Shown here: positions 4,039 to 18,168 of the stretch, piece after piece | Layout of the letters: every line of letters begins with the position of its first letter | Numbering within the stretch: the first letter of the stretch is position 1 | Assembly (NCBI GenBank): GCA_903881205.1 | Contig: CAIRSC010000089.1 | Location: 1-26,491, forward strand | DNA from: an uncultured bacterium | Lineage (GTDB): Bacteria; Patescibacteriota; Minisyncoccia; Phycocordibacterales; UBA2100 | Length of the DNA stretch: 26,491 nt | Direction: 5' to 3' | Program-made: the position numbers and the translations under genes | Notes under the pieces: generated by a model | What the model was told of the DNA's origin: nothing | The model's input: the letters and a program-made list of their open reading frames with translations, nothing else | Databases searched by the model: none

Positions 4039-5337
4039 ATGCAAAAGCCCTCGAAACCCTCGGCCGTAGAACCCGCACCACGGGCAAGGCTCTCGACCGA
4101 CCCGTATAAGGGCGTCCGCGACTTCTATCCGCCCGATCAGTTCATTCAGCGCTACCTCTACGAACACATGGAGCGTGTGTGCGAACTCTTCGGCTACGAG
4201 GAGTACAACGCGAGCGTACTCGAACCGACCGACCTCTACCGCTCGAAGACATCCGAAGAGATCGTCAACGAACAGACATACACCTTCCGCGACCGCGCGG
4301 ATCGCGAGGTGACGCTTCGCCCCGAAATGACTCCGTCGTTCGCCCGCATGATCGCCGGACGGTCGCGCGATATCCCGATGCCGGCACGCTGGTACTCCAT
4401 ACAAAATTTCTTCCGCTACGAACAAGTACGCAAAGGGCGCGAACGCGAATTCTGGCAGCTCAATGCGGATATCGTCGGAGTCGCGGGCATCGAGTCCGAT
4501 GTAGAGATCATCGCGATGTCGCACGCGATCATGCGCGCACTCGGCGCCGAAGAGCGCGACTTTGAGATCCGCGTGTCCGACCGCCGCATCCTCGACACCA
4601 TCTACGACACGGTCGATGTGCCGGCCGCAGTGCGCCCCGACGTCACCCGCCTCCTCGACAAACGCGACAAAATCGAGAACTTCCGAGAACAGCTGCTCGG
4701 ATTCCTCGGCAACGATGAGGACAAGGTCGCCGCTCTACTCGATCAGATCGAACGCACCACCTCGACCGCGTATCTCGAAGAGCTTCGTGTGCAACTCGCG
4801 AATATGGGGGTCAACAACATGATCGTCGACACCAAGATCACCCGCGGCTTCGACTATTACACCGGCATGGTGTTCGAAGTATTTGACACGTCTCCCGAGA
4901 ACAAGCGCTCTCTTTTCGGTGGTGGTCGCTACGACAATCTGCTCGCACTCTTCGGTGGAGACCCGATGCCGGCGGTCGGCTTCGCCATGGGCGATGTAAC
5001 TGCTCGAGACTTTCTTGAAGCGCACAATCTCTTGCCTGCATATGCACCGGCAACTGAACTCATGATCTGCATCGTCGAACCCGAAGCTACATCGCACGCG
5101 ATACGCCTCGCTCAAGATCTGCGCCGCGAAGACGTCACGGTCGCTATCAATTTCTCCGGTAAGCGCATCGGCGACCAGATCCGCCATGCCGACAAAATGA
5201 AAATCCCGTTTGTCATTGCCGTCGGCGCCAAAGAACGCGATTCCGGCCGCTACACGGTCAAGAATCTTTCGACGGGCAAAGAGCTCGAGCTCACTGCCGA
5301 CCGCATATCAGAACACCTTTTCAGTTCGCTCGGTTAA
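4039..5337 (+). CDS. hisS: Histidine--tRNA ligase
   Basis: KGVRDF, LRPEMT, WYSIQNFFRYE, REFWQ, RGFDYYTG and GGGRYD motifs plus a C-terminal anticodon-binding domain. Confidence 0.97.
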   Translation: MQKPSKPSAVEPAPRARLSTDPYKGVRDFYPPDQFIQRYLYEHMERVCELFGYEEYNASVLEPTDLYRSKTSEEIVNEQTYTFRDRADREVTLRPEMTPSFARMIAGRSRDIPMPARWYSIQNFFRYEQVRKGREREFWQLNADIVGVAGIESDVEIIAMSHAIMRALGAEERDFEIRVSDRRILDTIYDTVDVPAAVRPDVTRLLDKRDKIENFREQLLGFLGNDEDKVAALLDQIERTTSTAYLEELRVQLANMGVNNMIVDTKITRGFDYYTGMVFEVFDTSPENKRSLFGGGRYDNLLALFGGDPMPAVGFAMGDVTARDFLEAHNLLPAYAPATELMICIVEPEATSHAIRLAQDLRREDVTVAINFSGKRIGDQIRHADKMKIPFVIAVGAKERDSGRYTVKNLSTGKELELTADRISEHLFSSLG

Positions 5338-5630
5338 CCCGCTCTAAGTTTTTTGGCTGGCATTATGCAGTACGTATATATTCTGCAAAGCTCGGCTGAC
5401 GACAACCTCTATGTCGGATGTACTTCTGATCTGCGCAAACGACTGCTTCTGCATAATGCGGGAAAGGTACAGGCAACCAAAAATCGCAGACCAATGAAAG
5501 TGATATACTACGAGGCCTTAATGAATAAGAAAGATGCGTTTGAGCGCGAAAAGTTCTTGAAGACCGGCTGGGGCAGGACGTACATAAGACGAGTTATGAA
5601 AAATCATTTTAGCCAAAAAATTTAGGCGGG
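5338..5630. mobile_element. GIY-YIG cassette bounded by ~20-bp imperfect inverted repeats
   Basis: cccgctctaagttttttggct (5338-5358) versus agccaaaaaatttaggcggg (5611-5630): 19 matches, 1 mismatch, 1 indel. The cassette is AT-richer than its flanks. Confidence 0.55.
5365..5625 (+). CDS. Small GIY-YIG nuclease family protein
   Basis: YVYIL...LYVGCTSDLRKRL..HN and AFEREKFLK.GWGR signature. Confidence 0.9.
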   Translation: MQYVYILQSSADDNLYVGCTSDLRKRLLLHNAGKVQATKNRRPMKVIYYEALMNKKDAFEREKFLKTGWGRTYIRRVMKNHFSQKI

Positions 5631-5633
5631 TAT

Positions 5634-6209
5634 ATGCGGGTCGTTACCTTCGACATAGAGACCGCGAACTGGCTTGCGGATACGGGTTCGAATGACCCGG
5701 CATCGCTCACGATCGCGATCGTCTGCGCGCACGATTCCGAGACAGACGAATATACGAGCTATCTTGAACACGAGCTGCCCAAGATGTGGAACATGCTGGA
5801 GCGCACTGATGTGCTTGTGGGCTACAATTCCGATCATTTTGATGTGCCGCTTTTGAACAAATATTATCCCGGCGATCTGACCAAAATAAAGAGTCTCGAC
5901 ATTATGAAAGAGGTCCAGGCGGTGCTGGGTCGCCGGCTGCGGCTCGACGCGATCGCGGAAGGCACGCTTGGCGTCAAGAAAAGCGGCAACGGCGGACAGT
6001 CGATTGTGTGGTGGCGCAACGGCGAGATCGATAAGGTGCGCCAGTATTGCCTCAAGGATGTAGAGATCACAAAGCGAATTTTTGATTATGCGCTCGAACA
6101 CGGTGGTGTGAGGTATCGGGAGCTCGGCAAGACCTACGACGTCAAGCTCGACGTATCAAAATGGCTCAATCCCGCCGGCGGCGCAATGACGTTTACGCTT
6201 GGGCTGTAA
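5634..6209 (+). CDS. RNase H-like 3'-5' exonuclease (DEDD/YprB-like)
   Basis: VTFDIET, VGYNSDHFD, SLD and YCLKDV motifs. Confidence 0.8.
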   Translation: MRVVTFDIETANWLADTGSNDPASLTIAIVCAHDSETDEYTSYLEHELPKMWNMLERTDVLVGYNSDHFDVPLLNKYYPGDLTKIKSLDIMKEVQAVLGRRLRLDAIAEGTLGVKKSGNGGQSIVWWRNGEIDKVRQYCLKDVEITKRIFDYALEHGGVRYRELGKTYDVKLDVSKWLNPAGGAMTFTLGL

Positions 6210-6294
6210 CGCTATTTTGAAAGCTCCCAGATAAGGTCGCTTTCAATGCACTCGAACCAAGGTTCTCGGCCCAAAAATCACTGCGTGTATGTTT

Positions 6295-6391
6295 GTGCAG
6301 AATACTTGCAATAGCTCGAACCAGCGCCGCCGGTGGGGGCGGCGGCGCAAAACCCCCGCAGGAAAACGGCGCGGCGAAGCCGCACCGCTGA
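6295..6391 (+). other. Distal att arm of element 1 encoding the alternative C-terminus of LSR1 (WC-RILAIARTSAAGGGGGAKPPQENGAAKPHR*)
   Basis: In frame with the LSR1 codons TGG TGC across the GTGC core. Stop TGA at 6389-6391. Confidence 0.75.
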
Positions 6392-6463
6392 CAATATCAA
6401 ATTTTTCTTTGGCGGAAAAGGTTCGAGTGCGCGTCTCGCGTACACAATTGTTCTTTACAACAT

Positions 6464-6494
6464 AGAAAGAACCCCTTGCCGAAGCAAGGGGTTC
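6464..6494 (-). terminator. Intrinsic terminator
   Basis: Perfect 11-bp stem gaaccccttgc/gcaaggggttc, a cUUCGg loop on the minus strand followed by TTTCT, downstream of ORF 6612-6836. Confidence 0.7.
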
Positions 6495-6611
6495 AGTAAC
6501 CAACACGAGGAAGGTTCTTATTCGCTCTCTATCCCGTAGGATAGTGAGCATTACCCTTTAAGAGATCCGAAGACCTCAACCTGTGTGTTGTGGTAAGTTC
6601 TTATCCGTCAT

Positions 6612-6836
6612 TTACCGTGACGTTTCCATGGAGACACTCTTGTATCCGAAGATCCGACCGATGAGGTCGGGAAGAATTGCATCGGCGAATGCCGTCAACT
6701 CTTCCTTCGAGATGCCAGTTTCCTTGGCGATATTTCCGAACCGACGCTTTGCTTCGTCGACGCTCGGAAGGCCGTTTTTGCTGGCGTATGTCTTCACCAG
6801 CTCAAGGGCGATTTCGCCTTGGCGTTTGCTATCCAT
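6612..6836 (-). CDS. Small hypothetical protein (cargo of element 1)
   Basis: MDSKRQGEIALELVK... ORF with GAGGAG 6 nt upstream of ATG 6836 and a terminator downstream. Confidence 0.6.
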   Translation of the reverse strand: MDSKRQGEIALELVKTYASKNGLPSVDEAKRRFGNIAKETGISKEELTAFADAILPDLIGRIFGYKSVSMETSR

Positions 6837-7000
6837 GTTTCTCTCCTCAAGGTACTTCATCCACGAAGCCCTCGTGGTAGGGGTCATCAGAGAATCTAAT
6901 GACTCTGTAATTTTACACCCTAAAGTATGAAGTTGTCAAGTGGTTGTGTGGACATCAAAAAATACCCATATTTACCAACGTATTTATTGCAATTGAGCGT

Positions 7001-7287
7001 ATGCCAAAAGAATTTTCTTTTTTCCAATTAACACATGGTTCGAGCCGATGGTTTTCCGGGCTCCTTGGCGGTTTTCGAGTGGTGCGGCTTTGCCGCGCCG
7101 TTTTCCTGCGGGGGTTTTGCGCCGCCGCCCCCACCGGCGGCGCTGGTTCGAGCTATTGCAAGTATTCTGCACCAGTTCGGAAATTGCAAGTCAGAGCTCG
7201 CCGCCGCGCAGGGCGCGGCGGCTCGCGCATAGTGCGGTTTCGGGTCAAAAACAAATTCGATTGGAAAAAAGAAAATTCTTTTGGCAT
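7001..7287. repeat. Composite repeat: 28-bp perfect inverted repeats enclosing an inverted, joined attP and recombinase-gene fragments
   Basis: 7001-7028 and 7260-7287 are perfect IRs. 7030-7056 = rc 8646-8672; 7056-7077 = rc 7451-7472; 7081-7172 = rc 6295-6386 (1 mismatch); 7169-7259 = rc 8682-8772. Confidence 0.95.
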
Positions 7288-7314
7288 TCCTTTAGCAATT
7301 AGAAACAACAAAAT

Positions 7315-8796
7315 ATGAAATACGTACTCTACGTACGAAAGAGCACTGAGGAAGATGACCGACAAGTATTGAGCATTGAAGCTCAGCTTGCTGAGCTGTC
7401 TTTGTATTCCGCCAAAGAAAAATTTGATATTGTTGCCTCCTTTGAGGAGGCGAAAACCGCCAAGGAGCCCGGGCGAACAAAGTTCGCAGAAATGCTGTCA
7501 TATATCGAGAGCGGGAAAGCAGAAGGCATCATATCGTGGCACCCTGACCGTCTCGCGCGCAATTCGGTGGACGGCGGCAAGATTATCCACCTGGTTGACC
7601 GTGGCTTGATTCGTTCCCTCAAATTCCCCACATTCTGGTTTGAACCCACGCCGCAGGGACTATTCATGCTCAATATTGCCTTTGGCCAATCAAAATATTT
7701 TTCTGACAATTTGCGAGAGAACGTGAAAAGAGGATTACGGCAAAAGATACGAAACGGGGTATGGCCCGGCTGGGCTCCGGCGGGGTACCTAAACAACCTC
7801 AAGACCCGAGGAATCGATGTAGACAACGCTAAGGCTCCAAAAGTACGGAAATTATTCGAATTGTACGCCACCGGAGCTTACACGCTCAACTCTCTCGCAA
7901 ATTGGTGCAAAGAAAACGGCTTGCGAGGCAACCGCGACAAGGAACTTCGCATATCCACCGTCCATCACGTCCTGAAAAATATTTTGTACATTGGCCTTAT
8001 GAAATACAACGGCGAGGTATTTGAGGGAACGCACGAGCCGATCCTGACAAAGAAACTTTTTGACCGAGTGCAGGAAATCCTCGCACAGCGGGGTAAAAAC
8101 CGCAGGGCCAAGCGGCGCACCTTTGCTTTTTCCGGCTTTCTCACGTGCGGCACCTGCACCTGCGCCATTACCGCCGAGCTACAGAAAGGACACACCTACT
8201 ACCGCTGTACCAAGAAAAAGCAAAAGTGCGACGAGAGATATATCCGCGAGGAAAAACTGACGGAGCAAATGCGGGGTTTCCTGCAAAAAGTTTCTTTGTC
8301 GAGCCAAGACACCGAGAAATGTTTGGCGGCGTTGAACAGCGAGGAAGCGCGAGCAAAAGAGGAATCACAGGGCGAAGTCCAACAACTGAAAACACAAACC
8401 GCAGACCTAGACACGAAGCTGGAAAAGTTGTTGGACGCTTACCTCACCGACGCGCTATCCACAGCGGAATACGCCGCCAAAAAAGAAAAGCTGGTGAACG
8501 AGAAAGTGCGCGTGCAAGAAAAAACCACCGACATCGAGACAAAAGGGGTGTCTTGGCTCGAACCGGCTCGTGAATTCGTTTTGTCTTTGAATCAAGCCAC
8601 GGTTCTGCTTTCCCGAAACGAAAAGAGCGAAATGACAGCGTTTCTGAAAACCATCGGCTCGAACCATGTGTTGCGTAATCGCGAATTTGTTTTTGACCCG
8701 AAACCGCACTATGCGCGAGCCGCCGCGCCCTGCGCGGCGGCGAGCTCTGACTTGCAATTTCCGAACTGGTGCCGAGAACCAGATTCGAACTGGTGA
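7315..8796 (+). CDS. Large serine recombinase LSR1 (resolvase, recombinase, zinc ribbon and coiled-coil domains)
   Basis: Catalytic motif YVRKS, DRLARN, zinc ribbon CGTC...YYRC...C. The last 10 codons overlap tRNA-Phe in antisense. Confidence 0.95.
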   Translation: MKYVLYVRKSTEEDDRQVLSIEAQLAELSLYSAKEKFDIVASFEEAKTAKEPGRTKFAEMLSYIESGKAEGIISWHPDRLARNSVDGGKIIHLVDRGLIRSLKFPTFWFEPTPQGLFMLNIAFGQSKYFSDNLRENVKRGLRQKIRNGVWPGWAPAGYLNNLKTRGIDVDNAKAPKVRKLFELYATGAYTLNSLANWCKENGLRGNRDKELRISTVHHVLKNILYIGLMKYNGEVFEGTHEPILTKKLFDRVQEILAQRGKNRRAKRRTFAFSGFLTCGTCTCAITAELQKGHTYYRCTKKKQKCDERYIREEKLTEQMRGFLQKVSLSSQDTEKCLAALNSEEARAKEESQGEVQQLKTQTADLDTKLEKLLDAYLTDALSTAEYAAKKEKLVNEKVRVQEKTTDIETKGVSWLEPAREFVLSLNQATVLLSRNEKSEMTAFLKTIGSNHVLRNREFVFDPKPHYARAAAPCAAASSDLQFPNWCREPDSNW

Positions 8797-8842
8797 CCCT
8801 TCCCTCTTCAGGGGAATGCTCTACCAACTGAGCTATCTCGGC
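8767..8842 (-). tRNA. tRNA-Phe(GAA) with encoded CCA
   Basis: GCCGAGA acceptor stem, TTCCC-CTGAAGA-GGGAA anticodon arm, TTCGAAT T-loop, ends GGCACCA. Confidence 0.97.
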
Positions 8843-8903
8843 AAATTCCGTCCGTTGGCTGGACGCCCATTAATATACCCGTCTTTGGCCCTTTTCTCAA
8901 TGA

Positions 8904-9218
8904 TTACTGTGCTGTTGTCGTTCCCGTCCCCATGCCGGGAATCTTGTTCTTGAATTGATTCCACGTATTTTCGAGGTCACTAAACTTCGTCTGCGCCTGC
9001 ACACTGGTCCCCTGTATCTGTTGGACCTCATCGAGCATGCGATTTACGACCGGCGCAAGATACGAAAGATAGAACCAGATCGGTGCCGCGAGCAGTGCCG
9101 CATATACGATGGTACGGATAATACCGCCCCAAAAAGCATTGCGCTTCATTGTGCGAAGCATCTTATTGTTCTCGAGCGTAAGGCGGTACGTCTCTCGAAT
9201 AAGATCATTTTCGGGCAT
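8904..9218 (-). CDS. Hypothetical single-pass membrane protein between the two tRNAs
   Basis: 104-aa ORF with one TM helix and coiled-coil character. TGgTACGAT lies 6 nt upstream of the ATG. Confidence 0.7.
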   Translation of the reverse strand: MPENDLIRETYRLTLENNKMLRTMKRNAFWGGIIRTIVYAALLAAPIWFYLSYLAPVVNRMLDEVQQIQGTSVQAQTKFSDLENTWNQFKNKIPGMGTGTTTAQ

Positions 9219-9282
9219 GGAGATATCGTACCATTTAAAACCAACACGCCCCGGAGGGCGTGTGGTAAAGTTGCCTCGTTAC

Positions 9283-9354
9283 CCCCTTGTAGCTCAATGG
9301 ATAGAGCAGTCCCGTCCTAAGGGAAAGATGTAGGTTCGATTCCTGCTAAGGGGA
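9283..9354 (+). tRNA. tRNA-Arg(CCT), no encoded CCA
   Basis: CCCCTTG/TAAGGGG acceptor, GCTC/GAGC D stem, loop GTCCTAA, GTAGG-TTCGATT-CCTGC T arm. Confidence 0.9.
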
Positions 9355-10867
9355 CATGACAATTCTGACCACCACCTGACGCCGATGTCAGTGTGAAGAT
9401 TGGCGCTAATTCGACGGTTTTGAATTCCGGATACTGGAACCCGACATTTTGGGGGAAGAAGAGGCTTATCAAAACCCTAAGCTCTCCAGGCTCCAGCGTT
9501 GCCCAACAATGCGGGAATTCTTTTACGAGGCTAATGCCGAACTTTACTGCTGACTCTACTGACTCCTCGGGGCTGATGAGTGCGCTCCTCTGAATTTCCA
9601 GATTCCGCTGCTCTGCTTGCTGCTTCTCACTTTTGCGAGCGTAGTCCTCGTTGGTAATCTTTCTCTCCAGCATCAGCTGCAATAAGGAATCTCTCTCCTC
9701 TTGCAGCTTTTCCATTCTCCTCTCAACTTTCTCTGCAAGACTCAAGCTCTCTTTGTTCTCTTTCTCATGGGCGATGATTATTGCTTCTCCTACTGCGTCC
9801 AACACGTTGGAATCCGGAGTAATGGATTCAAGGAATCTTGTGAAGTCATCTTCCATGTCCGTTTTAGCGATTGCTCTTCTGAGAGGACAACCGAAATTCA
9901 TGCAGCTGTAGTAACCGTACATTTTGCTTCTGCCCTTAGTACGACCTCCCGTCAGGTTTCCTCCGCAGCCACCGCACTTCAGCCCCCTGAGAGGAAAGTC
10001 AGGATTATTCCTACTGCGAGGCTGCTTACGAGATTTGCTGCCCTCCTTGAGAAGCTGCACCTTGAAATACAATTCCTTAGAAATGATGGGCTCATGTCTG
10101 CCTTGTACCGAGATGTTGAATTTTGGTATTTCGATCCAGCCGTAGTGGATTGGGTTCCGTAGGATGTTATATACAAGCTGCTTTCCTACTTTGCGGCCGA
10201 ATCTACTGCGGATATCTCCCATCGCATTAATCTTTTTAGCGATTTCCAGATAGGTCGTTGTGCCTCTTGCGAACTCCTCAAAGCAGAACTTAACGATGGA
10301 CGCTTTTTGAGGATGTGGGGTTATGGTCTTTTTACCGAGTTCATCCTTGCTGTTTTTATAGCCCCAAGGCGCAAGAACAGGCCAATATCCATCGAGGGCT
10401 TTTGCTTTCATGCCAGCGACAGCTCTCTCACCTCGGACATCATTGTCGAACTGAGCGATGACAGCCAGCATTCCCTCCGAGAGTCTTCCGTGAGAAGTGT
10501 TCTCAATCAATTCCGTGGCAGATCTTAGTTCGACCTTACACTCTCGGAGCACTAACTTTATTGCGAAGTGGTCTACTTGATTGCGAGCCAACCTATCGAC
10601 CTTGTAGACGATCAGGTACCCAATTCTCCCTACGTTTTTTATGCAGTGCTTCTGGAGGTTTTGTAGCTCCGTTCTGTCTGCATTCTTCGCTGACTCTCCT
10701 TCTTCACGAAACACCTGCAGAACCTCCCAGCCATTTTTATCCGCGTAGGCTCTGCAATCCTTTTCCTGATTCATGAGGCTGTATCCCCGCACTTGGTCTT
10801 CGGACGAGACACGCACATAGATGATGCAGGTCTTTGGACGCTCAACGCTCTTAATTTGTTTTTTCAT
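9317..10867 (-). CDS. Large serine recombinase LSR2
   Basis: YVRVSS, VDRLARN, zinc ribbon CGGC...YYSC...C and a coiled coil. The C-terminus VPLAGIEPTSFP* is read from the antisense strand of tRNA-Arg. Confidence 0.95.
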   Translation of the reverse strand: MKKQIKSVERPKTCIIYVRVSSEDQVRGYSLMNQEKDCRAYADKNGWEVLQVFREEGESAKNADRTELQNLQKHCIKNVGRIGYLIVYKVDRLARNQVDHFAIKLVLRECKVELRSATELIENTSHGRLSEGMLAVIAQFDNDVRGERAVAGMKAKALDGYWPVLAPWGYKNSKDELGKKTITPHPQKASIVKFCFEEFARGTTTYLEIAKKINAMGDIRSRFGRKVGKQLVYNILRNPIHYGWIEIPKFNISVQGRHEPIISKELYFKVQLLKEGSKSRKQPRSRNNPDFPLRGLKCGGCGGNLTGGRTKGRSKMYGYYSCMNFGCPLRRAIAKTDMEDDFTRFLESITPDSNVLDAVGEAIIIAHEKENKESLSLAEKVERRMEKLQEERDSLLQLMLERKITNEDYARKSEKQQAEQRNLEIQRSALISPEESVESAVKFGISLVKEFPHCWATLEPGELRVLISLFFPQNVGFQYPEFKTVELAPIFTLTSASGGGQNCHVPLAGIEPTSFP

Positions 10868-11207
10868 GGTTTTTATTTTTATTTTCTAAGGTGACGAATG
10901 CTACTTTCACTCCGATTGACTTGAATGCTGCAATTTTTTGGTTGCAGAACATCTTGTACTTATCGAGGTTCTCTGGACGATACACGATGAGGAGATTGAT
11001 TTCTCCCGCACTGTCTTTGGCGTACTGAAGTGCCGCAGGGATTTGCCCCTTCTTCCGCCTCCTCCAGTAACGCTCCCGAAACACCTTCGCAATCTTTAAG
11101 CCGTTTGCTTCCGCATACGCCAGACAATGCTTCTCTTGAGAGAGCAGATCATCGACTGCCCATTTTCCCCAGTAGTCTGTCCGAACGTACACTATTGCTT
11201 TTTTCAT
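10851..11207 (-). CDS. Stand-alone resolvase-like catalytic domain lacking the catalytic Ser
   Basis: MKKAIVYVRTD...Q...CLAYAEANGLKIAKVFRE...LLIVYRPENL. Aligns by eye with the LSR2 N-terminus and overlaps the LSR2 start by 17 nt. Confidence 0.7.
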   Translation of the reverse strand: MKKAIVYVRTDYWGKWAVDDLLSQEKHCLAYAEANGLKIAKVFRERYWRRRKKGQIPAALQYAKDSAGEINLLIVYRPENLDKYKMFCNQKIAAFKSIGVKVAFVTLENKNKNHEKTN

Positions 11208-11497
11208 ACTGTTATTTTCTAATTTAACCTCGTAATTTTTGTCTCTCACGACCGCCGCGCTTTTTCTGGATTCCCAGAACTGGCGGAACGACACCTAGAA
11301 CACCGAAAGTTGGATGGGGTGCTCTTCGCTCTGGCTTCCGTGGTTGCTCTCTGGGGAAACCAGTTTTGGGCTTTCAGCCACACGCTAGACCACCACTGAA
11401 GGTGCGAAACGGCAGGTTGGAGCGACTTATCAACCTCCCGCTGCATTTCTTGCTCTGAAGGTAGAAAGCACCACCCATCTTTTTCCCTTCGTAGAAG

Positions 11498-11534
11498 CTT
11501 CTTTATAAAGAAGTTCTTTATAGAACTTCTTATA
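11498..11534. repeat. AT-rich overlapping palindromes and short direct repeats (origin- or operator-like)
   Basis: 16-bp palindrome at 11498-11513, 10-bp IR at 11508-11517/11522-11531, and ttct(t)tata x3. Confidence 0.7.
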
Positions 11535-11538
11535 ATAA

Positions 11539-11925
11539 TTAGGATCTTTTTGGGTCTTTTCCGAAGCGGTCAATCTTCGCTTTAATGAAGTTTGCGGATT
11601 TTCGCACTTCCGCTGTCAATCTCCTGCCCGGAGTCTTTTTGACAAAGCCGCTTTCGATGATGTTGTCTTTTTCTAATCGTTCAAGCGTCGCTGCTATGTC
11701 CGATTCATTTCCGCCAGAGTACTCAGCAAGCTGTCCAAGCTTATAGAGGCAGTATTGATTGTGGCGCGTCATATTCTCGATTATCGAGAACAAGTGTCTC
11801 TCCAACGGCTCTTTTACGTCGTACTTCTTGCACAGACTGTGCATGATGAGGGAGTACTTTATTTCCTCTTTATCCTCCTGTGGTGGAGGCGGTATATTTT
11901 TAAGGTACTTCTTTGCATGTTCCAT
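11539..11925 (-). CDS. Hypothetical HTH protein, possibly the N-terminal domain of a phage-type replication initiator
   Basis: LGQLAEYSGGNESDIAATLERLEKDNII resembles a winged HTH. It lies directly upstream of the palindromic array. Confidence 0.45.
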   Translation of the reverse strand: MEHAKKYLKNIPPPPQEDKEEIKYSLIMHSLCKKYDVKEPLERHLFSIIENMTRHNQYCLYKLGQLAEYSGGNESDIAATLERLEKDNIIESGFVKKTPGRRLTAEVRKSANFIKAKIDRFGKDPKRS

Positions 11926-11969
11926 GTTTGTAATGTTTACTCTGACAACCTTTCAGCGCTGGTTCCCAC

Positions 11970-12158
11970 CTAGGGTGGTTCCTCTTGGTTGGTAGGGCTG
12001 CTTCTTTGTTTGGCCATCACTCTTGCCCAGATTCTTAGTAATTCTGGAGCTAGTAGAAGGCAAAAGTCAGTGATGTGCTGCGCCTCGACTTCGGTGTATT
12101 GATTTTTTTGGCGCAAAATTCTTAAGATTTTTTCACGCTCATCCGATGTGTGCTCCAT
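11970..12158 (-). CDS. Small hypothetical protein
   Basis: 62-aa ORF co-oriented with its neighbours and filling the gap between them. Confidence 0.4.
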   Translation of the reverse strand: MEHTSDEREKILRILRQKNQYTEVEAQHITDFCLLLAPELLRIWARVMAKQRSSPTNQEEPP

Positions 12159-12199
12159 GCACTTTGTGCAGAATTTCTCGGAATTTTCCTTACATCAAC

Positions 12200-12222
12200 A
12201 AAAAAGCCCCGATTTACGGGGT
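12200..12222 (-). terminator. Intrinsic terminator
   Basis: ccccg-taaat-cgggg followed by CTTTTTT on the minus strand, just after ORF 12248-13045. Confidence 0.6.
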
Positions 12223-12247
12223 CTGACATCCTCAGGAAAAGATTTGT

Positions 12248-13045
12248 TTATTCTAGGTAGGCTCGTTCCTCCCGTTGCTCTGGTAGGATTTCAAATACCA
12301 CCTGATATGCGTCCCCACCCAGAGGCTCAAGCGGTTCTCCCGTTAATCGTGGGAAAACCTCCTTGAGAAGCGTTTTGAGAAGATTGATTTGTTTTCTCTT
12401 GCTCTCTTTAGCGGTCTTGCTTGAAGACAATTTGATAAGCCCCTTGTTAGCCGCCGCTTCTTCCAAGATGTGCCACTGCTCCTTGGGGCGACCACCTTTC
12501 TTTTCAAGCCCAAGCTGCGAACATTCAACACCATTCCTAGCCCAACTCTTGGAGGCTATACCGGCATATAGAGTGCGTCCATCTATGAATCGCAGTTGCA
12601 GGGAGCGCCAGTCAGCATCGGCTGGCGTGTCATCAATCACTATATGACTTGGAGAGATGCTTTCTGGGAATGCCGCTACAGCGCGTTCTATAATCTTGTC
12701 CAAGTCATCTATCCATAGCATCAAACAATCCTTTTCATCGTCAAAGTGAACTCCTTCGAGTACTTCAAAAACCTCAGTGACCATCGTGCCGATGACAAGT
12801 CCGTCATGGTATATGGTTCCATTAAGAATGGTGATATAAGATTTCTCTTTTGCGATTCTAGCGTTCCAATGACCAATTAAGGTTTTTGCCTCTGGATAGG
12901 AAATGTGGATACTCTGTAACACCTGAAATGGAATCTTTACTAGGAGAGGCTTTGAGTCTGGAGATAATTTTGATTGTGTGACAATCACTCCAATGAGATC
13001 GCAAATTTGCCTTTCTTGCTTTTGCGTCAATTTGCCTTGCTCCAT
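12248..13045 (-). CDS. Hypothetical protein, possible C-terminal winged-helix DNA-binding domain
   Basis: Long ORF. The C-terminal WHILEEAA...RKQINLLKTLLKEVF...YQV pattern resembles OmpR-type wHTH tails. Start ambiguous (13045 or 13099). Confidence 0.55.
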   Translation of the reverse strand: MEQGKLTQKQERQICDLIGVIVTQSKLSPDSKPLLVKIPFQVLQSIHISYPEAKTLIGHWNARIAKEKSYITILNGTIYHDGLVIGTMVTEVFEVLEGVHFDDEKDCLMLWIDDLDKIIERAVAAFPESISPSHIVIDDTPADADWRSLQLRFIDGRTLYAGIASKSWARNGVECSQLGLEKKGGRPKEQWHILEEAAANKGLIKLSSSKTAKESKRKQINLLKTLLKEVFPRLTGEPLEPLGGDAYQVVFEILPEQREERAYLE

Positions 13046-13180
13046 ATAGAAAATAGTACAGGCAAAGTGCCAATACGCCACCACCTTTCCTTTCTGCAAT
13101 AGCGAGGTAAGCTTCTAGGACACATACCAAATATCGAAGAGATCTAAACCGTCAGCCTTCCAAAAGCAGGCGGCACGATC

Positions 13181-13308
13181 GCAAATCGTTGACTACAGAA
13201 AACCCGTCATTTAGGGCGTAGTCAACGTTGCAGAGGGAAACTTCTGTAGAGCCGCAAGGCTCCCTAGTGGCGGGCTTTATGTTTGCCCACCACTAATTAC
13301 GAATTAGT
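13181..13308 (+). ncRNA. Candidate structured RNA or leader (unassigned family)
   Basis: Consecutive stems: a 10-bp perfect stem (13187-13196/13218-13227), a GAAA-capped stem (13230-13247), a GCAA-capped stem (13249-13262) and two mutually exclusive 3' hairpins. Confidence 0.5.
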
Positions 13309-13323
13309 TGTGAGACAAGCATT

Positions 13324-13815
13324 ATGCACGTTGGACAAGTAATTGGTTTCATAAAGAGACAATGGTTAGCGGCAATCCTGATTATTCTTCTCATTCTCTT
13401 TTATCTATATTCTCAGAATTCCAACAAGCAAATTATTGATAATCAATTCAAATGCCAACAGCTTGCTAATCAGATCGAGCAGACAATACATTCCGACGAC
13501 ACTGGAATGTTTAGCATGTTGAGCGTGCTGAATGCTCATTTCAACTCCGAGACTCTACCTCCAGCGACGGCAACAAGTACGCCTGCCACTATCACAGGGG
13601 CTGATTTCTTCTATAAAGTCTTCTATAGTCGGAAATACAATTCCTGTTTGTACGCCCACTTTATCCGCGGAAAGGCTGTTGGAATTAACATGACACTTAT
13701 GTTGATTGATGACCTGCTTAGTGGCCAAAATGCGCTGTACATAGATGCCTCTCTTTCTATCTCAAATTCCGATGCGTATGCAGAACTTGAGAAACAAATC
13801 CCAAATTTTCAGTGA
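13324..13815 (+). CDS. Hypothetical membrane-anchored protein
   Basis: 163-aa ORF with an N-terminal TM helix (WLAAILIILLILFYLY) and a Cys pair. Confidence 0.7.
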   Translation: MHVGQVIGFIKRQWLAAILIILLILFYLYSQNSNKQIIDNQFKCQQLANQIEQTIHSDDTGMFSMLSVLNAHFNSETLPPATATSTPATITGADFFYKVFYSRKYNSCLYAHFIRGKAVGINMTLMLIDDLLSGQNALYIDASLSISNSDAYAELEKQIPNFQ

Positions 13816-14312
13816 TTGATATGAAATGGGGTAAACTTCCGGATTCAGGCCTCTTTAGAACTGCTGAACAGGGAGAAATGCTCAGACCATTTCTCATTCT
13901 AGCTTTTTCACTTATTGCCATAGTAGCTATTCTCTATAACACAAAAGATTCACCGGATAATCTACCCGCAAATGCACCTGCAACTGTCTTTGTTCCGCAG
14001 AGCGTAACTCCTGCAGAACAAAAGGCCGCAGTGGCGGGAATTGCAGCTCTAAAATGTCCAGAGGCATATGCCAACGATGTCGAAAGAGCAAAGGCTTTCT
14101 ATGAGTACTTCGACTATTTTTTTACGGTGTACCCGAATAAACACGGAATGTATGACTGGGACGCTGGCCGCATGGACTTCCTTATCTCACATCACTGCAC
14201 AACTACGCTTGTAGCCTATGGTTATGACGGGACAAGCCCGATAGACTCTGCGATTAGACAGAAGCTCATCAACAACGCTATGCAATCAGACCAAGCCACG
14301 AGCACGCCGTAG
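13812..14312 (+). CDS. Hypothetical membrane-anchored or secreted protein
   Basis: ORF coupled to the previous stop codon, with a hydrophobic segment and two Cys. Start ambiguous. Confidence 0.65.
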   Translation: MIDMKWGKLPDSGLFRTAEQGEMLRPFLILAFSLIAIVAILYNTKDSPDNLPANAPATVFVPQSVTPAEQKAAVAGIAALKCPEAYANDVERAKAFYEYFDYFFTVYPNKHGMYDWDAGRMDFLISHHCTTTLVAYGYDGTSPIDSAIRQKLINNAMQSDQATSTP

Positions 14313-14327
14313 TATCAGTAATGCCTT

Positions 14328-14540
14328 ATGCAAGAATCAGGCGATGTTCATTCCACGATACAACTGCTGACCATCAAGGAGGTTGCAGGGTTGCTGAAGA
14401 TATCTCAGATGACGGTACGTCGTTTGCAGCAGGGGCGGCATCTCCCGTTCATAAAGGTTGGCGGTAGTGTCCGTTTCGCCAAGAGTGACATTATTCAATA
14501 TCTAAAGAAACAGAGAATTGATTCAATCGATAGGTTTTGA
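14328..14540 (+). CDS. Excisionase-like HTH (MerR/HTH_17) DNA-binding protein
   Basis: LLTIKEVAGLLKISQMTVRRL...LPFIKVGGSVRF...I signature. Confidence 0.85.
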   Translation: MQESGDVHSTIQLLTIKEVAGLLKISQMTVRRLQQGRHLPFIKVGGSVRFAKSDIIQYLKKQRIDSIDRF

Positions 14541-14618
14541 GATTTGCTGGTCGTTGGGCTATTTACTAATTAAATAGTCAAGGAGCAGTACAGGAGCGGC
14601 CAGCAAATCTCAAAACCT
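14532..14618. repeat. 22-bp inverted repeat (21/22) with a nested AT-rich hairpin, between convergent genes
   Basis: aggttttgagatttgctggtcg (14532-14553) and cggccagcaaatctcaaaacct (14597-14618), with inner gctattta/taaatagt. Confidence 0.9.
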
Positions 14619-14632
14619 CCATTGGGGCTGCG

Positions 14633-14998
14633 CTACTCTTCAGGGATTGACGCATTGCTCTCATTGAGTGAGCGAATGAGCGCAAGGACGCTCAGCCCTC
14701 CTTGATGTTGCACTGTTTCCTTTGGCTTTCCCACCGTATGTTCAAGCAACAGGCGTGCGGCATTCACGTCAGGAGCCTTTGAGTAGACAAACTCTTCTCC
14801 ACCGTCAACCTCTTTGACAACACGCAAGCCAATAGCAGAATCTATGAGAGCGTCAAACAACTCTTTTGCGCGAGGCTTTAATTGCTTCAACATCAATTCA
14901 CGCATCTTTTGAGTCTCAAGCGTCCTTGGTGACATAGGAGCTCCGGCTCCCGCTCTTGCTCCTCCCCAAGTATTCTTTTTTAGTACCGCTGATTCCAT
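14633..14998 (-). CDS. Phage terminase small subunit-like protein
   Basis: N-terminal GGARAGAG and C-terminal PDVNAARLLLEHTVGKPKETV pattern recalled from small-terminase-like proteins. No search was run. Confidence 0.45.
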   Translation of the reverse strand: MESAVLKKNTWGGARAGAGAPMSPRTLETQKMRELMLKQLKPRAKELFDALIDSAIGLRVVKEVDGGEEFVYSKAPDVNAARLLLEHTVGKPKETVQHQGGLSVLALIRSLNESNASIPEE

Positions 14999-15068
14999 AG
15001 ATTTTCAAGTTTCAAGTTCGGAATGCCATTTAATTAAACCTCCGATTTCGTAATATGGATACTATTTC

Positions 15069-15566
15069 CTATTTCACTCGCGTTACATACCGAATTGGGA
15101 TAAGTTCATTCGTTTCTAAAAACTCGGAGCCCGACTGCGCCTTAATATGGGAATTCCCACCCGAAACTAAGATGTGGTATATAAAGGCGTCTTGGCCATG
15201 CTCCTGAAGGAAACTCAGTTCATTTCTAGAAACATAGATGGGCGACGAGAGAGAACTTGTAGTACTCTTCACCTCAATGTATTTCTCTCTGCCGTCCGTA
15301 AAAAATGACAAGACATCATAGCCTGCACCATCTCCATCTTCAGCGGCAACGTTGCGTACCCTGTCTGCCAAATCTTTTCTTCCGATGGACTCAAAAAAAT
15401 CCTGTTCTATTGCAACTGCAATCTCCTCTCCTCTGTCTCCGGTCAATTTCCTTGACCTATTTATTTCTTCCCAGTTAATCTTCCGTGCCGTTCTATAGAA
15501 TCTTTCAGGAGCAATTATTTCTTTCTGCTGTTGTGGTTCGGAAACATCCCTAACGAAATTGCGCAC
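15069..15566 (-). CDS. DUF3883 (NOV C-terminal) PD-(D/E)xK endonuclease domain protein, possibly N-terminally truncated
   Basis: GDRGEEIA...E...DGAGYDVLSF...KYIEVKST...NE motif. Confidence 0.8.
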   Translation of the reverse strand: MRNFVRDVSEPQQQKEIIAPERFYRTARKINWEEINRSRKLTGDRGEEIAVAIEQDFFESIGRKDLADRVRNVAAEDGDGAGYDVLSFFTDGREKYIEVKSTTSSLSSPIYVSRNELSFLQEHGQDAFIYHILVSGGNSHIKAQSGSEFLETNELIPIRYVTRVK

Positions 15567-15592
15567 CGAAGTAATCGCTCCACTTATTTTCG

Positions 15593-15880
15593 ATGCCCAT
15601 CTGGGTTCCTAAACCCCTAGGATTGAATCGTCAAATTATTAATCCCTACACAGGGAGCACGACCTCAGATTCCAACCAAGAGATAAACGGACAAACTTAT
15701 TATCATTTTAAAGGAGCTTTAAGAGATTCGATATACCCAACAAGAGCGAAGTCATTTGCGACTTTAAATCTACCCACCAGCAGCATGCATGGCACCTTCA
15801 CTTTCTTCTCTCAGATTGCCTGTGAAGATGGAGTGTTTCCGGAAAAGTTCGAAGACTCCCCTCTAACAGCAGCTGTATGA
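15593..15880 (+). CDS. Hypothetical ORF or gene remnant
   Basis: 95-aa ORF filling the gap between the two nucleases, with no recognisable motif. Confidence 0.25.
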   Translation: MPIWVPKPLGLNRQIINPYTGSTTSDSNQEINGQTYYHFKGALRDSIYPTRAKSFATLNLPTSSMHGTFTFFSQIACEDGVFPEKFEDSPLTAAV

Positions 15881-15935
15881 ACAGAGAACAATAACCATCA
15901 TCCAAATTATGGTTCAATAGCGTTAGAGTATTGAG

Positions 15936-17072
15936 TTACGCTATTAAATCTCTTATTTTCAATAAATCATGTCCGTCCACTAGCTTTACATTGTTCTTTT
16001 GTGCTAAAGCCTTAGCAGATGGAGTAAAAGTTGAGTTTGTAATTACCCAGCCCTCATTTCCACTGTAGTAGCTAACAGCACCGACAACCTCCTGAACAGC
16101 TTTGTTTCCAACAGTGCCTTGGTATCTTTTGGCTTGGATGACCAAAGTCTTCCCGCTTTTCTTAGCTAACAAATCAGCTCCCTGGTCTCCAGTAGTAGCA
16201 GTACCACTAACATCGTAACCACACTCCTTAAATATTTTTGATAGGTATGTTTCAAATTCAACACCAGAAAGGTCATTTAAGCTGATATCCTTTTTAGGGC
16301 TACCTTTTTGGGCTTCGTGGTATTCTCTAAAAATCTTCTCTAAGACCTTAGGCAAATCTCTATACTGATCTGGTACATTCCATGTATATCCTTTTTTAAA
16401 AAAGTCTTTTAATTTGGCATCACTAATACCGTCAATTACAGCCAGTTTTCTTATACAAGCTTCAATTTCCTTAGATAAAAGAACCCAGCTTTCATCTCCG
16501 TAGTCATCGATGATAGATACCTTTCTCTCTGTAATCTCAAGGAATTTATCTATTATATCTTTCCGGCCATCAAGAAAATGTCTTGCTTCACGCTCAGTCT
16601 TATCTTCGTATTCCTTTTCAGCTTGCTCCTGCCTTATTCTATTTTCCTCTACAATCTCCTTGTATCTCTCTTTAAATTTAGGCAGAAGAGAATTCTTCAA
16701 TTCAATATATTGAAGAGGAATACCCTGTCTCTTTTCCCATACAGGCAACCATTCTCTAGATTTAGGAGCTATGTTTGGAACCCTTTCTCTTATAGCAATT
16801 TCCTTTATACAATCACTCACCTGATTTTCTACATAATGAGGCCAGCTATCCTTTCTAAGGTTTTTTAGATGGTCTTCAATTAAAATCTGGTTTCTTTCCT
16901 CAAGCGATTTGGTCTTATCTAAATCTGCAACAGGGTATTTGTTTTCTAAATCCAATTGTGCCTTACGCGTAACAAAGTGGTTTTTACTAGATTCCTGTAT
17001 AGAGTTAATTACTGAGACTATACCCCAAATAATGAATCCAATGATGACCAGAGGTATGGCAAGTTCCTCCAT
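15936..17072 (-). CDS. Mrr-family (type IV-like) restriction endonuclease with N-terminal TM helix
   Basis: C-terminal LSGVEFE...GY.V...TGDQGADL...VIQAKRY...V..V...ITNSTFT..A...A....V.LVDG. AT-rich. Confidence 0.85.
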   Translation of the reverse strand: MEELAIPLVIIGFIIWGIVSVINSIQESSKNHFVTRKAQLDLENKYPVADLDKTKSLEERNQILIEDHLKNLRKDSWPHYVENQVSDCIKEIAIRERVPNIAPKSREWLPVWEKRQGIPLQYIELKNSLLPKFKERYKEIVEENRIRQEQAEKEYEDKTEREARHFLDGRKDIIDKFLEITERKVSIIDDYGDESWVLLSKEIEACIRKLAVIDGISDAKLKDFFKKGYTWNVPDQYRDLPKVLEKIFREYHEAQKGSPKKDISLNDLSGVEFETYLSKIFKECGYDVSGTATTGDQGADLLAKKSGKTLVIQAKRYQGTVGNKAVQEVVGAVSYYSGNEGWVITNSTFTPSAKALAQKNNVKLVDGHDLLKIRDLIA

Positions 17073-17162
17073 AAAATCATTTCTTACTATACGATAAATT
17101 TTAAAATCTCACAATAACCTCCAACCGCAGCTCTCTAATTACACAACTAGGTTTTAACTCCA

Positions 17163-17297
17163 TCAGGCTCTTGTTTCCTGAAGCTGAGCCATTGGCGTAA
17201 AGCCACGATTTTGGAGGCTGGCGAACTTTCCTGCCACAGAGCTAAGCGTCTGAAGGAACTGGACTATTGGTTTTGAGTTCTGTATCGTCAGGGGGAC
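17163..17297 (-). other. Distal att arm of element 2 encoding the alternative C-terminus of LSR2 (VP-LTIQNSKPIVQFLQTLSSVAGKFASLQNRGFTPMAQLQETRA*)
   Basis: A 45-codon open frame starting at the GTCCCC core, in the same frame as the LSR2 codons GTC CCC. Confidence 0.75.
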
Positions 17298-17536
17298 TAG
17301 ATCGCGAGCAATTCACGGATTCTAGGCTCGTCGAACCCGACGACGAACTGGTCGCCGATGGTGATCACCGGCACGCCCATCTGGCCGCTCTTATCAATCA
17401 TCTCCTTGCGCTTCTCGAGGTCCGTTGCAACATTGTAGTCGGTGAACGCCACGTTGTTGGCGGTGAAGAATTCCTTGGCCATGTGGCAGAAGTGGCACGA
17501 TGGCGTCGAATAAATCTGTACTGGTGTTGTGTTCAT
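17297..17536 (-). CDS. Glutaredoxin/NrdH-like redoxin
   Basis: YSTPSCHFC, GVPV and GFD motifs. Confidence 0.9.
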   Translation of the reverse strand: MNTTPVQIYSTPSCHFCHMAKEFFTANNVAFTDYNVATDLEKRKEMIDKSGQMGVPVITIGDQFVVGFDEPRIRELLAI

Positions 17537-17586
17537 GGTGTTTGTGTAAGGCGTATAAGCTACCCTCAGATTATATCACTGCAGGT

Positions 17587-18168
17587 TTAGGAACGAAGCG
17601 ATGTAAGCGCCTTGGACCACGAGATGAGCTGATCAAGCATGCCGTTGGCACGCTCATCGTACGAAGTGAACAGCTCTGCCTCCGGAGTGCCCTGCGAGGA
17701 GGCCATGATGACATCGAACGGCATGTGGACTGAATACTTTATGGGAGCCATTCCGAGCTCAATAACGACCGATCGCAGCTGCTCGATCGCTCGCGCACCC
17801 ATGGCACTGCCGTAGCTCACGAATCCAACTGCCTTGTTATTCCATTCCGACCCCACGTAATCAAGTGCATTTTTTAGTACGGCTGAATAGCCGTGATTGT
17901 ACTCGGGTGCGATGATGACGAACCCGTCTGCCTCAGCGACCTTGGCAGTCCACTTCACGACCGCAGGATCTGTGTACGGCTTTGTCTTGTAGCTGGGCGT
18001 CTCTGTCTCATTGAAAAACGGCATCGGGTAATCCCGCAGATCGAGCACCTCTATTTCGACCCCTTCTTTCTTTCCAAGAAGTGCGGTGATCCAGCGTGCA
18101 GGCTTTTCGGCGAAGCGGCCCTCGCGGGTCGATCCGACGATTACTTTGATCTTGAGTGGTTCAGCCAT
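17587..18168 (-). CDS. NADPH-dependent FMN reductase family flavoprotein
   Basis: GSTREGR, PEYNHGYSAVLKNALD and VSYG motifs. Confidence 0.9.
   Translation of the reverse strand: MAEPLKIKVIVGSTREGRFAEKPARWITALLGKKEGVEIEVLDLRDYPMPFFNETETPSYKTKPYTDPAVVKWTAKVAEADGFVIIAPEYNHGYSAVLKNALDYVGSEWNNKAVGFVSYGSAMGARAIEQLRSVVIELGMAPIKYSVHMPFDVIMASSQGTPEAELFTSYDERANGMLDQLISWSKALTSLRS

Follow-up and report, generated by a model that had tools for sequence, protein, structure and literature searches.

A T-loop box in a 5-bp offset register at the attachment sites of tRNA-targeting large serine recombinases of Patescibacteria

How does a site-specific integrase come to insert at the ends of many different tRNA genes? 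The question is raised by contig CAIRSC010000089.1, a 26,491-nt stretch (the window, to which all coordinates refer) from a Patescibacteria assembly of 0.8 Mb in 113 contigs that holds five large serine recombinases (LSRs), each adjoining a tRNA 3′ end. Two of them, LSR1 and LSR2, lie in the window, and the open reading frame of each overruns a tRNA 3′ end head-on: LSR1 runs into tRNA-Phe, with its last 8 codons (7 residues and the stop) antisense to that gene, and LSR2 runs into tRNA-Arg, off which its last 10 residues are read. Serine integrases are prized for genome engineering, and the basis of their target choice is only partly understood. Here we describe the attachment sites of the two elements that carry these genes, together with those of their relatives, and argue that such LSRs probably read the T-loop box at tRNA 3′ ends, in a register that differs by 5 bp between attP and attB.

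The limits of both elements were established by comparing Logan contigs from four lake-water runs with positions 5000-18000 of the window. In run X3 a sister strain is represented by a 7,721-nt contig that carries both empty sites, joining 6294 to 8769 (2,474 bp skipped, 4 nt shared) and 9349 to 17292 (7,942 bp skipped, 6 nt shared), and therefore gives the exact boundaries of both elements. Element 1 occupies 6295-8768 (2,474 bp) and has a 4-bp core, GTGC, equal to tRNA nt 74-71; these contig joins confirm the core named in an earlier sequence-only reading of the locus (the original prediction). Element 2 occupies 9350-17291 (7,942 bp) and has a 6-bp core, GGGGAC (17292-17297), of which only GTCC, in LSR sense, is common family-wide. 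From the empty sites, attP and attB share no more than these 4 and 6 bp. The empty site of element 1 also occurs in run X1, at depth 8, alongside the occupied form. At the empty site the tRNA-Phe gene ends in ...GGCACAAA, that is, CCA is not encoded, and element 1, through its TGG, therefore supplies an encoded CCA. In many relatives CCA is already encoded in the trailer, extending the shared core to 6-7 bp. A tRNA 3′ copy of 15 bp or more was not found in element 1, where just GTGC is shared, and there is no tRNA-like stem around the distal box described next.

Positions within an arm are given as i, counted from the first base past the nt 73-71 triplet, with i = 1 being tRNA nt 70. As the original prediction had stated, the string TCGAAC begins 12 nt past GTGC on the tRNA-Phe side and 17 nt past GTGC in the distal arm of element 1. 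Its comparison for element 2 likewise holds: GGTTCGATTCCTG (9333-9345) and GTTTTGAGTTCTG (17270-17282) match at 9/13 positions and, at distances of 4 and 9 nt from the core, show the 5-nt offset again. TCGAAC has a frequency of 4.0e-4 per strand position in this genome. Its recurrence at one pre-specified offset in one element is thus improbable, yet the match was chosen post hoc; the weight is carried by the family-level tests. Whole-arm match counts in the window alone give no clear peak at +5, where element 1 has 10/30 and element 2 has 12/30 and other shifts are similar, so that the single-locus evidence, the 6-mer and the 9/13 match, is suggestive only.

Relatives of LSR1 were drawn from a genome-contig scan that yielded 80 Patescibacteria loci (of roughly 560 tblastn-positive loci) with integrases 60-75% identical. 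A convergent tRNA gene is overrun by the LSR gene in 62/80 of these loci, and the targets comprise 24 isoacceptor types (Leu x5, Arg x5, Ala, Gly, Lys, Tyr, Val, Met, Phe, Asn, Gln, Glu, Ile). The 62 tRNA junctions invariably read ...TTGCAATTTCCTnnnTGG followed by the complement of nt 73-71. With an attP that is nearly constant, this target range bears out the proposed retargeting among tRNAs. The internal inverted attP copy contained in each element (see below) made it possible to locate the distal arms of relatives, and we recovered 46 attP sites and 38 full attL/attR/attP sets.

Across the 46 attP sites the arm reads nGTATnCTTnAAnTAGTnCGAACGCATTTC and then enters a GC hairpin. The best-kept block is TAGTnCGAAC, with TAGT at i = 14-17 and CGAAC at i = 19-23, the latter conserved at C.96, G 1.0, A.93, A.98 and C.98. 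In the tRNA arm, TCGAAC stands at i = 13-18, a position set by tRNA geometry. We scored the tRNA arm against the attP arm, profile versus profile, at 26 shifts from -10 to +15. The LSR1 family scores 3.54 at +5, and the 25 other shifts lie between -2.75 and 1.56. When the attP columns are permuted, P is 0.0018 at the pre-specified +5 and 0.042 for the maximum over the 26 shifts.

The LSR2 family, with only ~29% identity between it and the LSR1 family, provides a second test. The C-terminal peptide is encoded by a tRNA T arm (GIEP-like) in at least 91 of the 120 best LSR2 homologues, and nine have free-form tails; the DNA of six free forms, together with element 2, made up the LSR2-like attP set. 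A scan of metagenome contigs with LSR2 gave one relative, L094, at tRNA-Ile, which shows that the family core is GTNN, equal to nt 74-71. At i = 18-23 the LSR2-like attP arm reads TGGAAC in four sites and TCAAAA in three, element 2 among them. The shift score is 3.96 at +5, the next best is 2.42, and 0/5,000 permutations reached 3.96. Att-site logos built from homologues thus display the enrichment of the 5-bp offset that had been predicted, with a unique peak at +5 in both the LSR1 and the LSR2-like family.

The remaining serine integrases of the genome lie on contigs C39, C83 and C101. C39-type relatives occur in 94/401 sampled Patescibacteria genomes (E of 1e-60 or better) and LSR2-type relatives in 61/401 (E of 1e-40 or better), with nearly all of the loci inspected at tRNA 3′ ends. 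Every C39-type locus inspected was integrated at a tRNA, and therefore no attP could be rebuilt for that type.

In the LI integrase, the zinc-ribbon motif occupies positions 16-24 in attP and 11-19 in attB (Rutherford et al. 2013, PMC3783163); that paper states the rule on which the original prediction drew, namely that the motif lies 5 bp closer to the crossover in attB than in attP. For Bxb1, a switch of site identity, attB-like to attP-like, is reported for positions 14 and 20. With a crossover at nt 72/71 the T-loop box falls at positions 14-19 in attB and 19-24 in attP, and with a crossover at nt 73/72 it falls at 15-20 and 20-25. The predicted LSR attP/attB geometry therefore stands in part: the box is 5 bp nearer the crossover in attB and its positions fit LI, but the P and B arms lack an inverted box. 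LSR1 resembles A118/LI in its resolvase, recombinase and zinc-ribbon domains as well as in having a motif 5 bp nearer the crossover in attB (~11-19) than in attP (~16-24). Its best PDB match is the C-terminal domain of the A118/LI integrase (4KIS, 6DNW; E 6e-9), and all four zinc-ribbon Cys of LSR1 align with the zinc ribbon of the A118 integrase. In phmmer, the alignment to 6DNW/4KIS spans query residues 216-416 across the LI coiled-coil region with low accuracy (0.69). The systems also differ, in that sequence identity is low, attP here lies inside the integrase gene, and the LI target is a protein-coding gene whereas the motif here is the universal tRNA T-loop box.

To account for the observed boundaries, cores, conserved box, +5 register and target range, we propose the following: (I) elements 1 and 2 are integrative elements, each driven by an LSR whose attP overlaps the 3′ end of its own gene, and in both the recombination site is the very 3′ end of a tRNA gene (nt 74-71); (II) the tRNA-side half-site of attB consists of the acceptor 3′ strand and the T arm, with the T-loop box G53 T54 T55 C56 R57 A58 (TYGAAC in integrase sense) as the sole sequence common to all targets; (III) the matching attP arm bears the box, as CGAAC in the LSR1 family and as TGGAAC/TCAAAA in the LSR2 family, at a distance from the crossover that is exactly 5 bp greater; and (IV) this layout is the one described for A118/LI, where a zinc-ribbon module docks 5 bp nearer the centre on attB than on attP and the difference lets the enzyme tell the two site types apart. 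By analogy with LI, the zinc-ribbon domain of the LSRs is the most likely reader of the box, and we infer that the box is required for recombination. Such a reading would open nearly any tRNA gene to the family, since both the box and its spacing from the tRNA 3′ end are universal.

Several observations weigh against this proposal. The shared box amounts to 5 nt within the LSR1 family and to 4 nt (GAAC) across both families. The first box base in attP, i = 18, is variable (T.54, C.28), and the attP motif of element 2 itself, TCAAAAC, is degenerate. No inverted box is found in the P arm (the LSR 3′ coding end) or the B arm (the tRNA trailer), whereas LI has its motif in both half-sites and the elements described here have it only in the P′ and B′ arms. 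In the protein alignment, the zinc-ribbon hairpin of LSR1, the DNA-contacting hairpin in LI, is shorter and lacks the LI contact residues. Because family members share ancestry, the 46 LSR1-family sites are not 46 independent observations, and the evidence comes in effect from two independent families. The tRNA arms also have conserved G at i = 5, 6, 9 and 10, with no attP counterpart. Covariation of the attP box with the T-loop variant of the target was looked for separately and rejected: C or T at i = 19 of the attP box agrees with TCGAAC or TTGAAC in the target only in L027, and four other TTGAAC targets keep CGAAC in attP.

The junctions themselves add to these difficulties. Identity between attB and attP spans 3-7 bp and always includes nt 73-71 in the 38 full sets (the core is 3-7 bp in 36/38), and the first base beyond the identity block differs in 33/38. 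Four loci lack G74 in the trailer, which excludes a crossover at nt 74/73. Three further loci (L058, L061 and L076) have TAC rather than TGC at attR nt 73-71, which argues against crossovers at 73/72 and 72/71 alike; the internal attP copy keeps TGC in L061 and L076, and none was recovered for L058. These TAC junctions give the host tRNA a G1-U72 wobble pair and may be the footprint of a mismatched crossover or of later mutation. At three non-tRNA junctions (L017, L040 and L055), the box stands on the target side at attP-like spacing (i = 17 or 18). Such junctions may be insertions into the site of another element, or hybrid sites.

As to sequence at these last junctions, the LSR end is joined to TGG TGT/TGC, 16-17 nt and YCGAACC or GAGAACC (L017 5707-5750, L040 11461-11505, L055 11473-11510), and the target-side arms are unlike the distal arm of the element concerned. 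A similar arm is present in L019 as a 230-nt inverted pair (15525-15760 and 17340-17640) beside tRNA-Leu, without an integrase.

The brevity of the match, the unmatched G residues, the P of 0.042 over all shifts in the LSR1 family and the boxless P and B arms would also suit a different account. The distal block could be a genuine integrase-binding element whose likeness to the T loop is coincidental, with tRNA ends picked via other cues, for instance their ACCA, the shape of the DNA, or G/C at nt 61-62 and 65-66. We regard this as unlikely. Against coincidence, the +5 register recurs independently in the LSR2-like family, the box is the most conserved block of both the attP arm and the tRNA arm, and it is located where the LI model puts the zinc-ribbon motif.

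A second alternative arises from the internal inverted attP copy of the LSR1-type elements. In element 1 a block at 7001-7287 encloses the reverse complements of 8646-8672, 7451-7472, 6295-6389 and 8682-8775; within it, 6295-6389 recurs in reverse complement at 7078-7172 and 8682-8775 at 7166-7259, and exact inverted pieces of 22-28 nt flank this attP copy. Logan k=31 contigs span the flanking joins of the block as single pieces (6346-7121, 7230-8711). An internal inverted attP copy was found in 46 of ~55 testable LSR1 relatives (within L014-L093). The D/D′ (40/40) and A/A′ (45/45) pairs are identical in almost all 46, and the pairs A:A′, D′:D, B:B′, C′:C, E′:E and F:F′ are present in 12/12 elements inspected, with G:G′ often present. 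Between elements the D arm is 64% identical, and its copies change together, with 696 concerted cells in 74/87 columns versus 71 one-sided. Copies that are near-identical within elements and divergent between them point to homogenisation or to selection for complementarity.

The segments of element 1 that go with this block lie at 6295-6417, 7407-7472 and 8646-8775. Logan unitigs shared by both repeat copies have depths of 26 and 20 against ~21-24, that is, not doubled; this may be a coverage bias at the GC hairpin, and we do not use it as evidence. An origin of the block as a one-off captured mini-circle was rejected, the block being conserved family-wide. Internal inverted attP copies were sought in element 2 and in the C39, C83 and C101 elements, and none was found.

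The distal box could accordingly be kept for the coding of the native LSR tail, or for complementarity to the internal inverted copy in a nucleic-acid structure. The whole A arm, to the stop codon of the tail, is duplicated in inverted form and identical within each element, and in its free form this arm (6299-6389) codes for the 30-residue native tail of LSR1 and ends at its stop codon; the WN of the LSR2-like tails could likewise be a protein-level motif. Complementarity, however, forces the copies to match each other and not to stay constant across 46 diverged elements, and the D arm varies freely between elements where CGAAC does not. As for the tail, LSR2 codons begin at i = 3, 6, ... (TGG AAC = WN) and LSR1 codons at i = 1, 4, ... 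(GTn CGA ACG = VRT), and the box peptides are VRT in LSR1 versus WN or SK in the LSR2-like family. Since frames and peptides differ and GAAC stays, the common feature is the DNA string GAAC at i = 20-23 and not a peptide. In addition, L027 keeps TGAAC despite a stop codon within the box region, and the third-codon positions i = 15 and i = 21 of the attP block are kept at 0.98 and 0.93, compared with a mean of 0.63 for third positions in the LSR body, of which 9% reach 0.9. The constraint on the attP block is thus one on DNA rather than on peptide, and we consider retention for the tail or for complementarity to be quite improbable.

That the distal arm is a decayed tRNA 3′ half with a 5-bp insertion, alike by descent and not by function, is very improbable and was rejected for want of a flanking stem: tRNA-targeting elements do classically bear tRNA 3′ fragments, and the D arm of element 1 has the T-arm-like tCCGAACtggtgc (8760-8772; 11/13 to tRNA), but the A-arm box lacks flanking T-stem complementarity, acceptor or T-stem similarity is missing at every shift, attP and attB share just 3-7 bp, and a decayed relic would not be the best-conserved block in 46 elements and in a second LSR family. 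We retain the reading of the T-loop box by the LSRs as the probable explanation. The features of the window on which it is built are collected in Table 1.

Table 1. Positions of the attachment-site, tRNA, recombinase and repeat features in the window
Feature	Position	Strand	Basis or detail
GTGC core copy at attL, left boundary of element 1	6295-6298	+	empty-site contig
Distal arm A (P′ arm of attP)	6299-6389	+	conserved in 46 relatives
T-loop-like box TCGAAC, P′ arm	6316-6321	+	i = 18-23; positions 19-24 if crossover nt 72/71
GC-rich hairpin on A side of attP	6323-6348	+	matching hairpin on D side, 8718-8744
Internal block upstream of LSR1	7001-7287	+	28-bp inverted repeats 7001-7028 / 7260-7287
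Inverted near-identical copy of attP junction (D + core + A)	7078-7259	-	box GTTCGA (+ strand) 7146-7151
LSR1, large serine recombinase, 493 aa	7315-8796	+	Pfam Resolvase, Recombinase, Zn_ribbon_recom
Arm D (P arm of attP) = LSR1 3′ coding end	8682-8768	+	ends in TTGCAATTTCCGAACTGG, supplying CCA end
tRNA-Phe(GAA)	8767-8842	-	ARAGORN + Rfam; 3′ half = attB B′ arm
GTGC core copy at attR = tRNA-Phe nt 74-71	8769-8772	+	
T-loop box TCGAAC, tRNA side	8785-8790	+	complement of tRNA-Phe G53-A58; i = 13-18 (positions 14-19)
tRNA-Arg(CCT), element 2 target	9283-9355	+	ARAGORN; T-loop box GTTCGA 9334-9339
LSR2, large serine recombinase, 516 aa	9317-10867	-	Pfam Resolvase, Recombinase, Zn_ribbon_recom
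Element 2 distal arm + core	17270-17297	-	LSR-sense TCAAAAC at i = 18-24; + strand TTTTGA 17271-17276

Both recombinases contain the PF00239 resolvase domain (E 1e-20 for LSR1, 9e-32 for LSR2), and PF07508 and PF13408 were found in each, the zinc ribbon of LSR2 below the Pfam cut-off. The N-terminus of LSR1 reads MKYVLYVRKST, with the catalytic serine, Ser10, in a Y-x-R-x-S context. An Rfam search of 6000-9500 returned nothing beyond the two tRNAs. Outside element 1, a 295-bp stretch (5339-5633) is missing in one contig each of X3 and X1, and because these contigs join 5338 to 5634 it is a cassette that is present or absent in the population.

Some further repeats surround the tRNA-Phe site. 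The TTGCAA-N22-TTGCAA symmetry described for the reconstructed attP of element 1 is present (8752-8757 and 6306-6311), and it also occurs within the internal inverted copy (7156, 7184). As an attP dyad it was rejected: it is off-centre, displaced 1-3 bp to the left of every possible crossover, and it is not conserved, the distal hexamer being TTGAAT in most relatives. The integrase-side arm of attP in element 1 ends in the tCCGAACtggtgc string mentioned above, whose tRNA counterpart, tTCGAACtggtga (8784-8796), lies 24 nt further; the string is peculiar to element 1, and relatives have TTTCCTnnnTGG. In the tRNA-Phe trailer, 6251-6272 is an inverted near-copy of the gene's own 3′ half (minus strand GCCGAGAACCttgGTTCGAG versus plus strand GCCGAGAACCagaTTCGAAC at 8772-8790). 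This near-copy is separated from the core by 22 nt and is asymmetric about the crossover. It could be the scar of an older event, or could form a hairpin with the acceptor 3′ strand.

What the internal inverted attP copy does is a separate question. Between the distal arm and the LSR we found no conserved protein genes, only recurring repeat-overlapping frames, and no directionality-factor candidate. None of the 80 loci shows a flipped state, in which the LSR would continue into the internal D·A copy of its element. The copy might serve in autoregulation, might adopt a folded single-stranded form, or might act as an inversion switch by which the body of the integrase regains an intact 3′ cassette. 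More speculatively, the LSR1-type elements might be selfish elements of 2.3-3.5 kb, with the integrase as sole conserved gene, that enter essentially any tRNA 3′ end because the integrase reads nothing but generic features of tRNA genes, namely the T-loop box with its 5-bp shift and the ACCA end, and that need a step undescribed for serine integrases. Such a step would involve the continually homogenised inverted attP copy, along with four or five short stretches that can pair with either end of the integrase gene, 5′ or 3′. It would proceed through an intermediate of folded single-stranded DNA or RNA, or else through an inversion switch by which the integrated integrase gene recovers its native 3′ end. 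We put this forward only tentatively.

The LSR1-type elements can be set beside other mobile elements. TnpX (Tn4451) and TndX (Tn5397) are LSRs that serve as the only mobility gene of their elements and use many targets with a short common motif, with dependence on the context of a central dinucleotide. In contrast, what defines the targets of LSR1-type elements is a structured gene class (tRNA 3′ ends), and these elements are only 2.3-3.5 kb long and have a conserved internal inverted attP. Site-specific insertion in the 3′ part of a tRNA gene, with the end restored by the element, is shared with tyrosine-integrase tRNA islands (e.g. Islander, PMC4383910). In those islands the tRNA 3′ end is repeated as a long direct repeat and each targets one tRNA, whereas here the shared core is 3-7 bp, the crossover lies at nt 74-71 and one integrase family uses at least 24 isoacceptor types. 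Insertion at tRNA 3′ ends with restoration of the end by the element is also described for the LSR-bearing minority of tycheposons, and the text consulted reports no att-site geometry for tycheposon serine recombinases (bioRxiv 10.1101/2020.12.28.424599).

In sum, in a family that is natural and widespread, one nearly constant attP pairs with at least 24 tRNA genes, and the sole sequence that these targets share is a box of 5-6 bp where the LI model predicts the zinc-ribbon motif. If the proposed reading of the T-loop box is true, these elements would offer a clean natural test of the 5-bp rule for discriminating attP from attB, and the reading would explain how an integrase can combine site specificity in position with a generic choice of target. 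The minimal target definition that it implies, a short core and one box at fixed spacing, could then guide the retargeting of integrases. For the Patescibacteria, the data also show that the tRNA genes of these tiny genomes are hit by serine-integrase as well as tyrosine-integrase elements.

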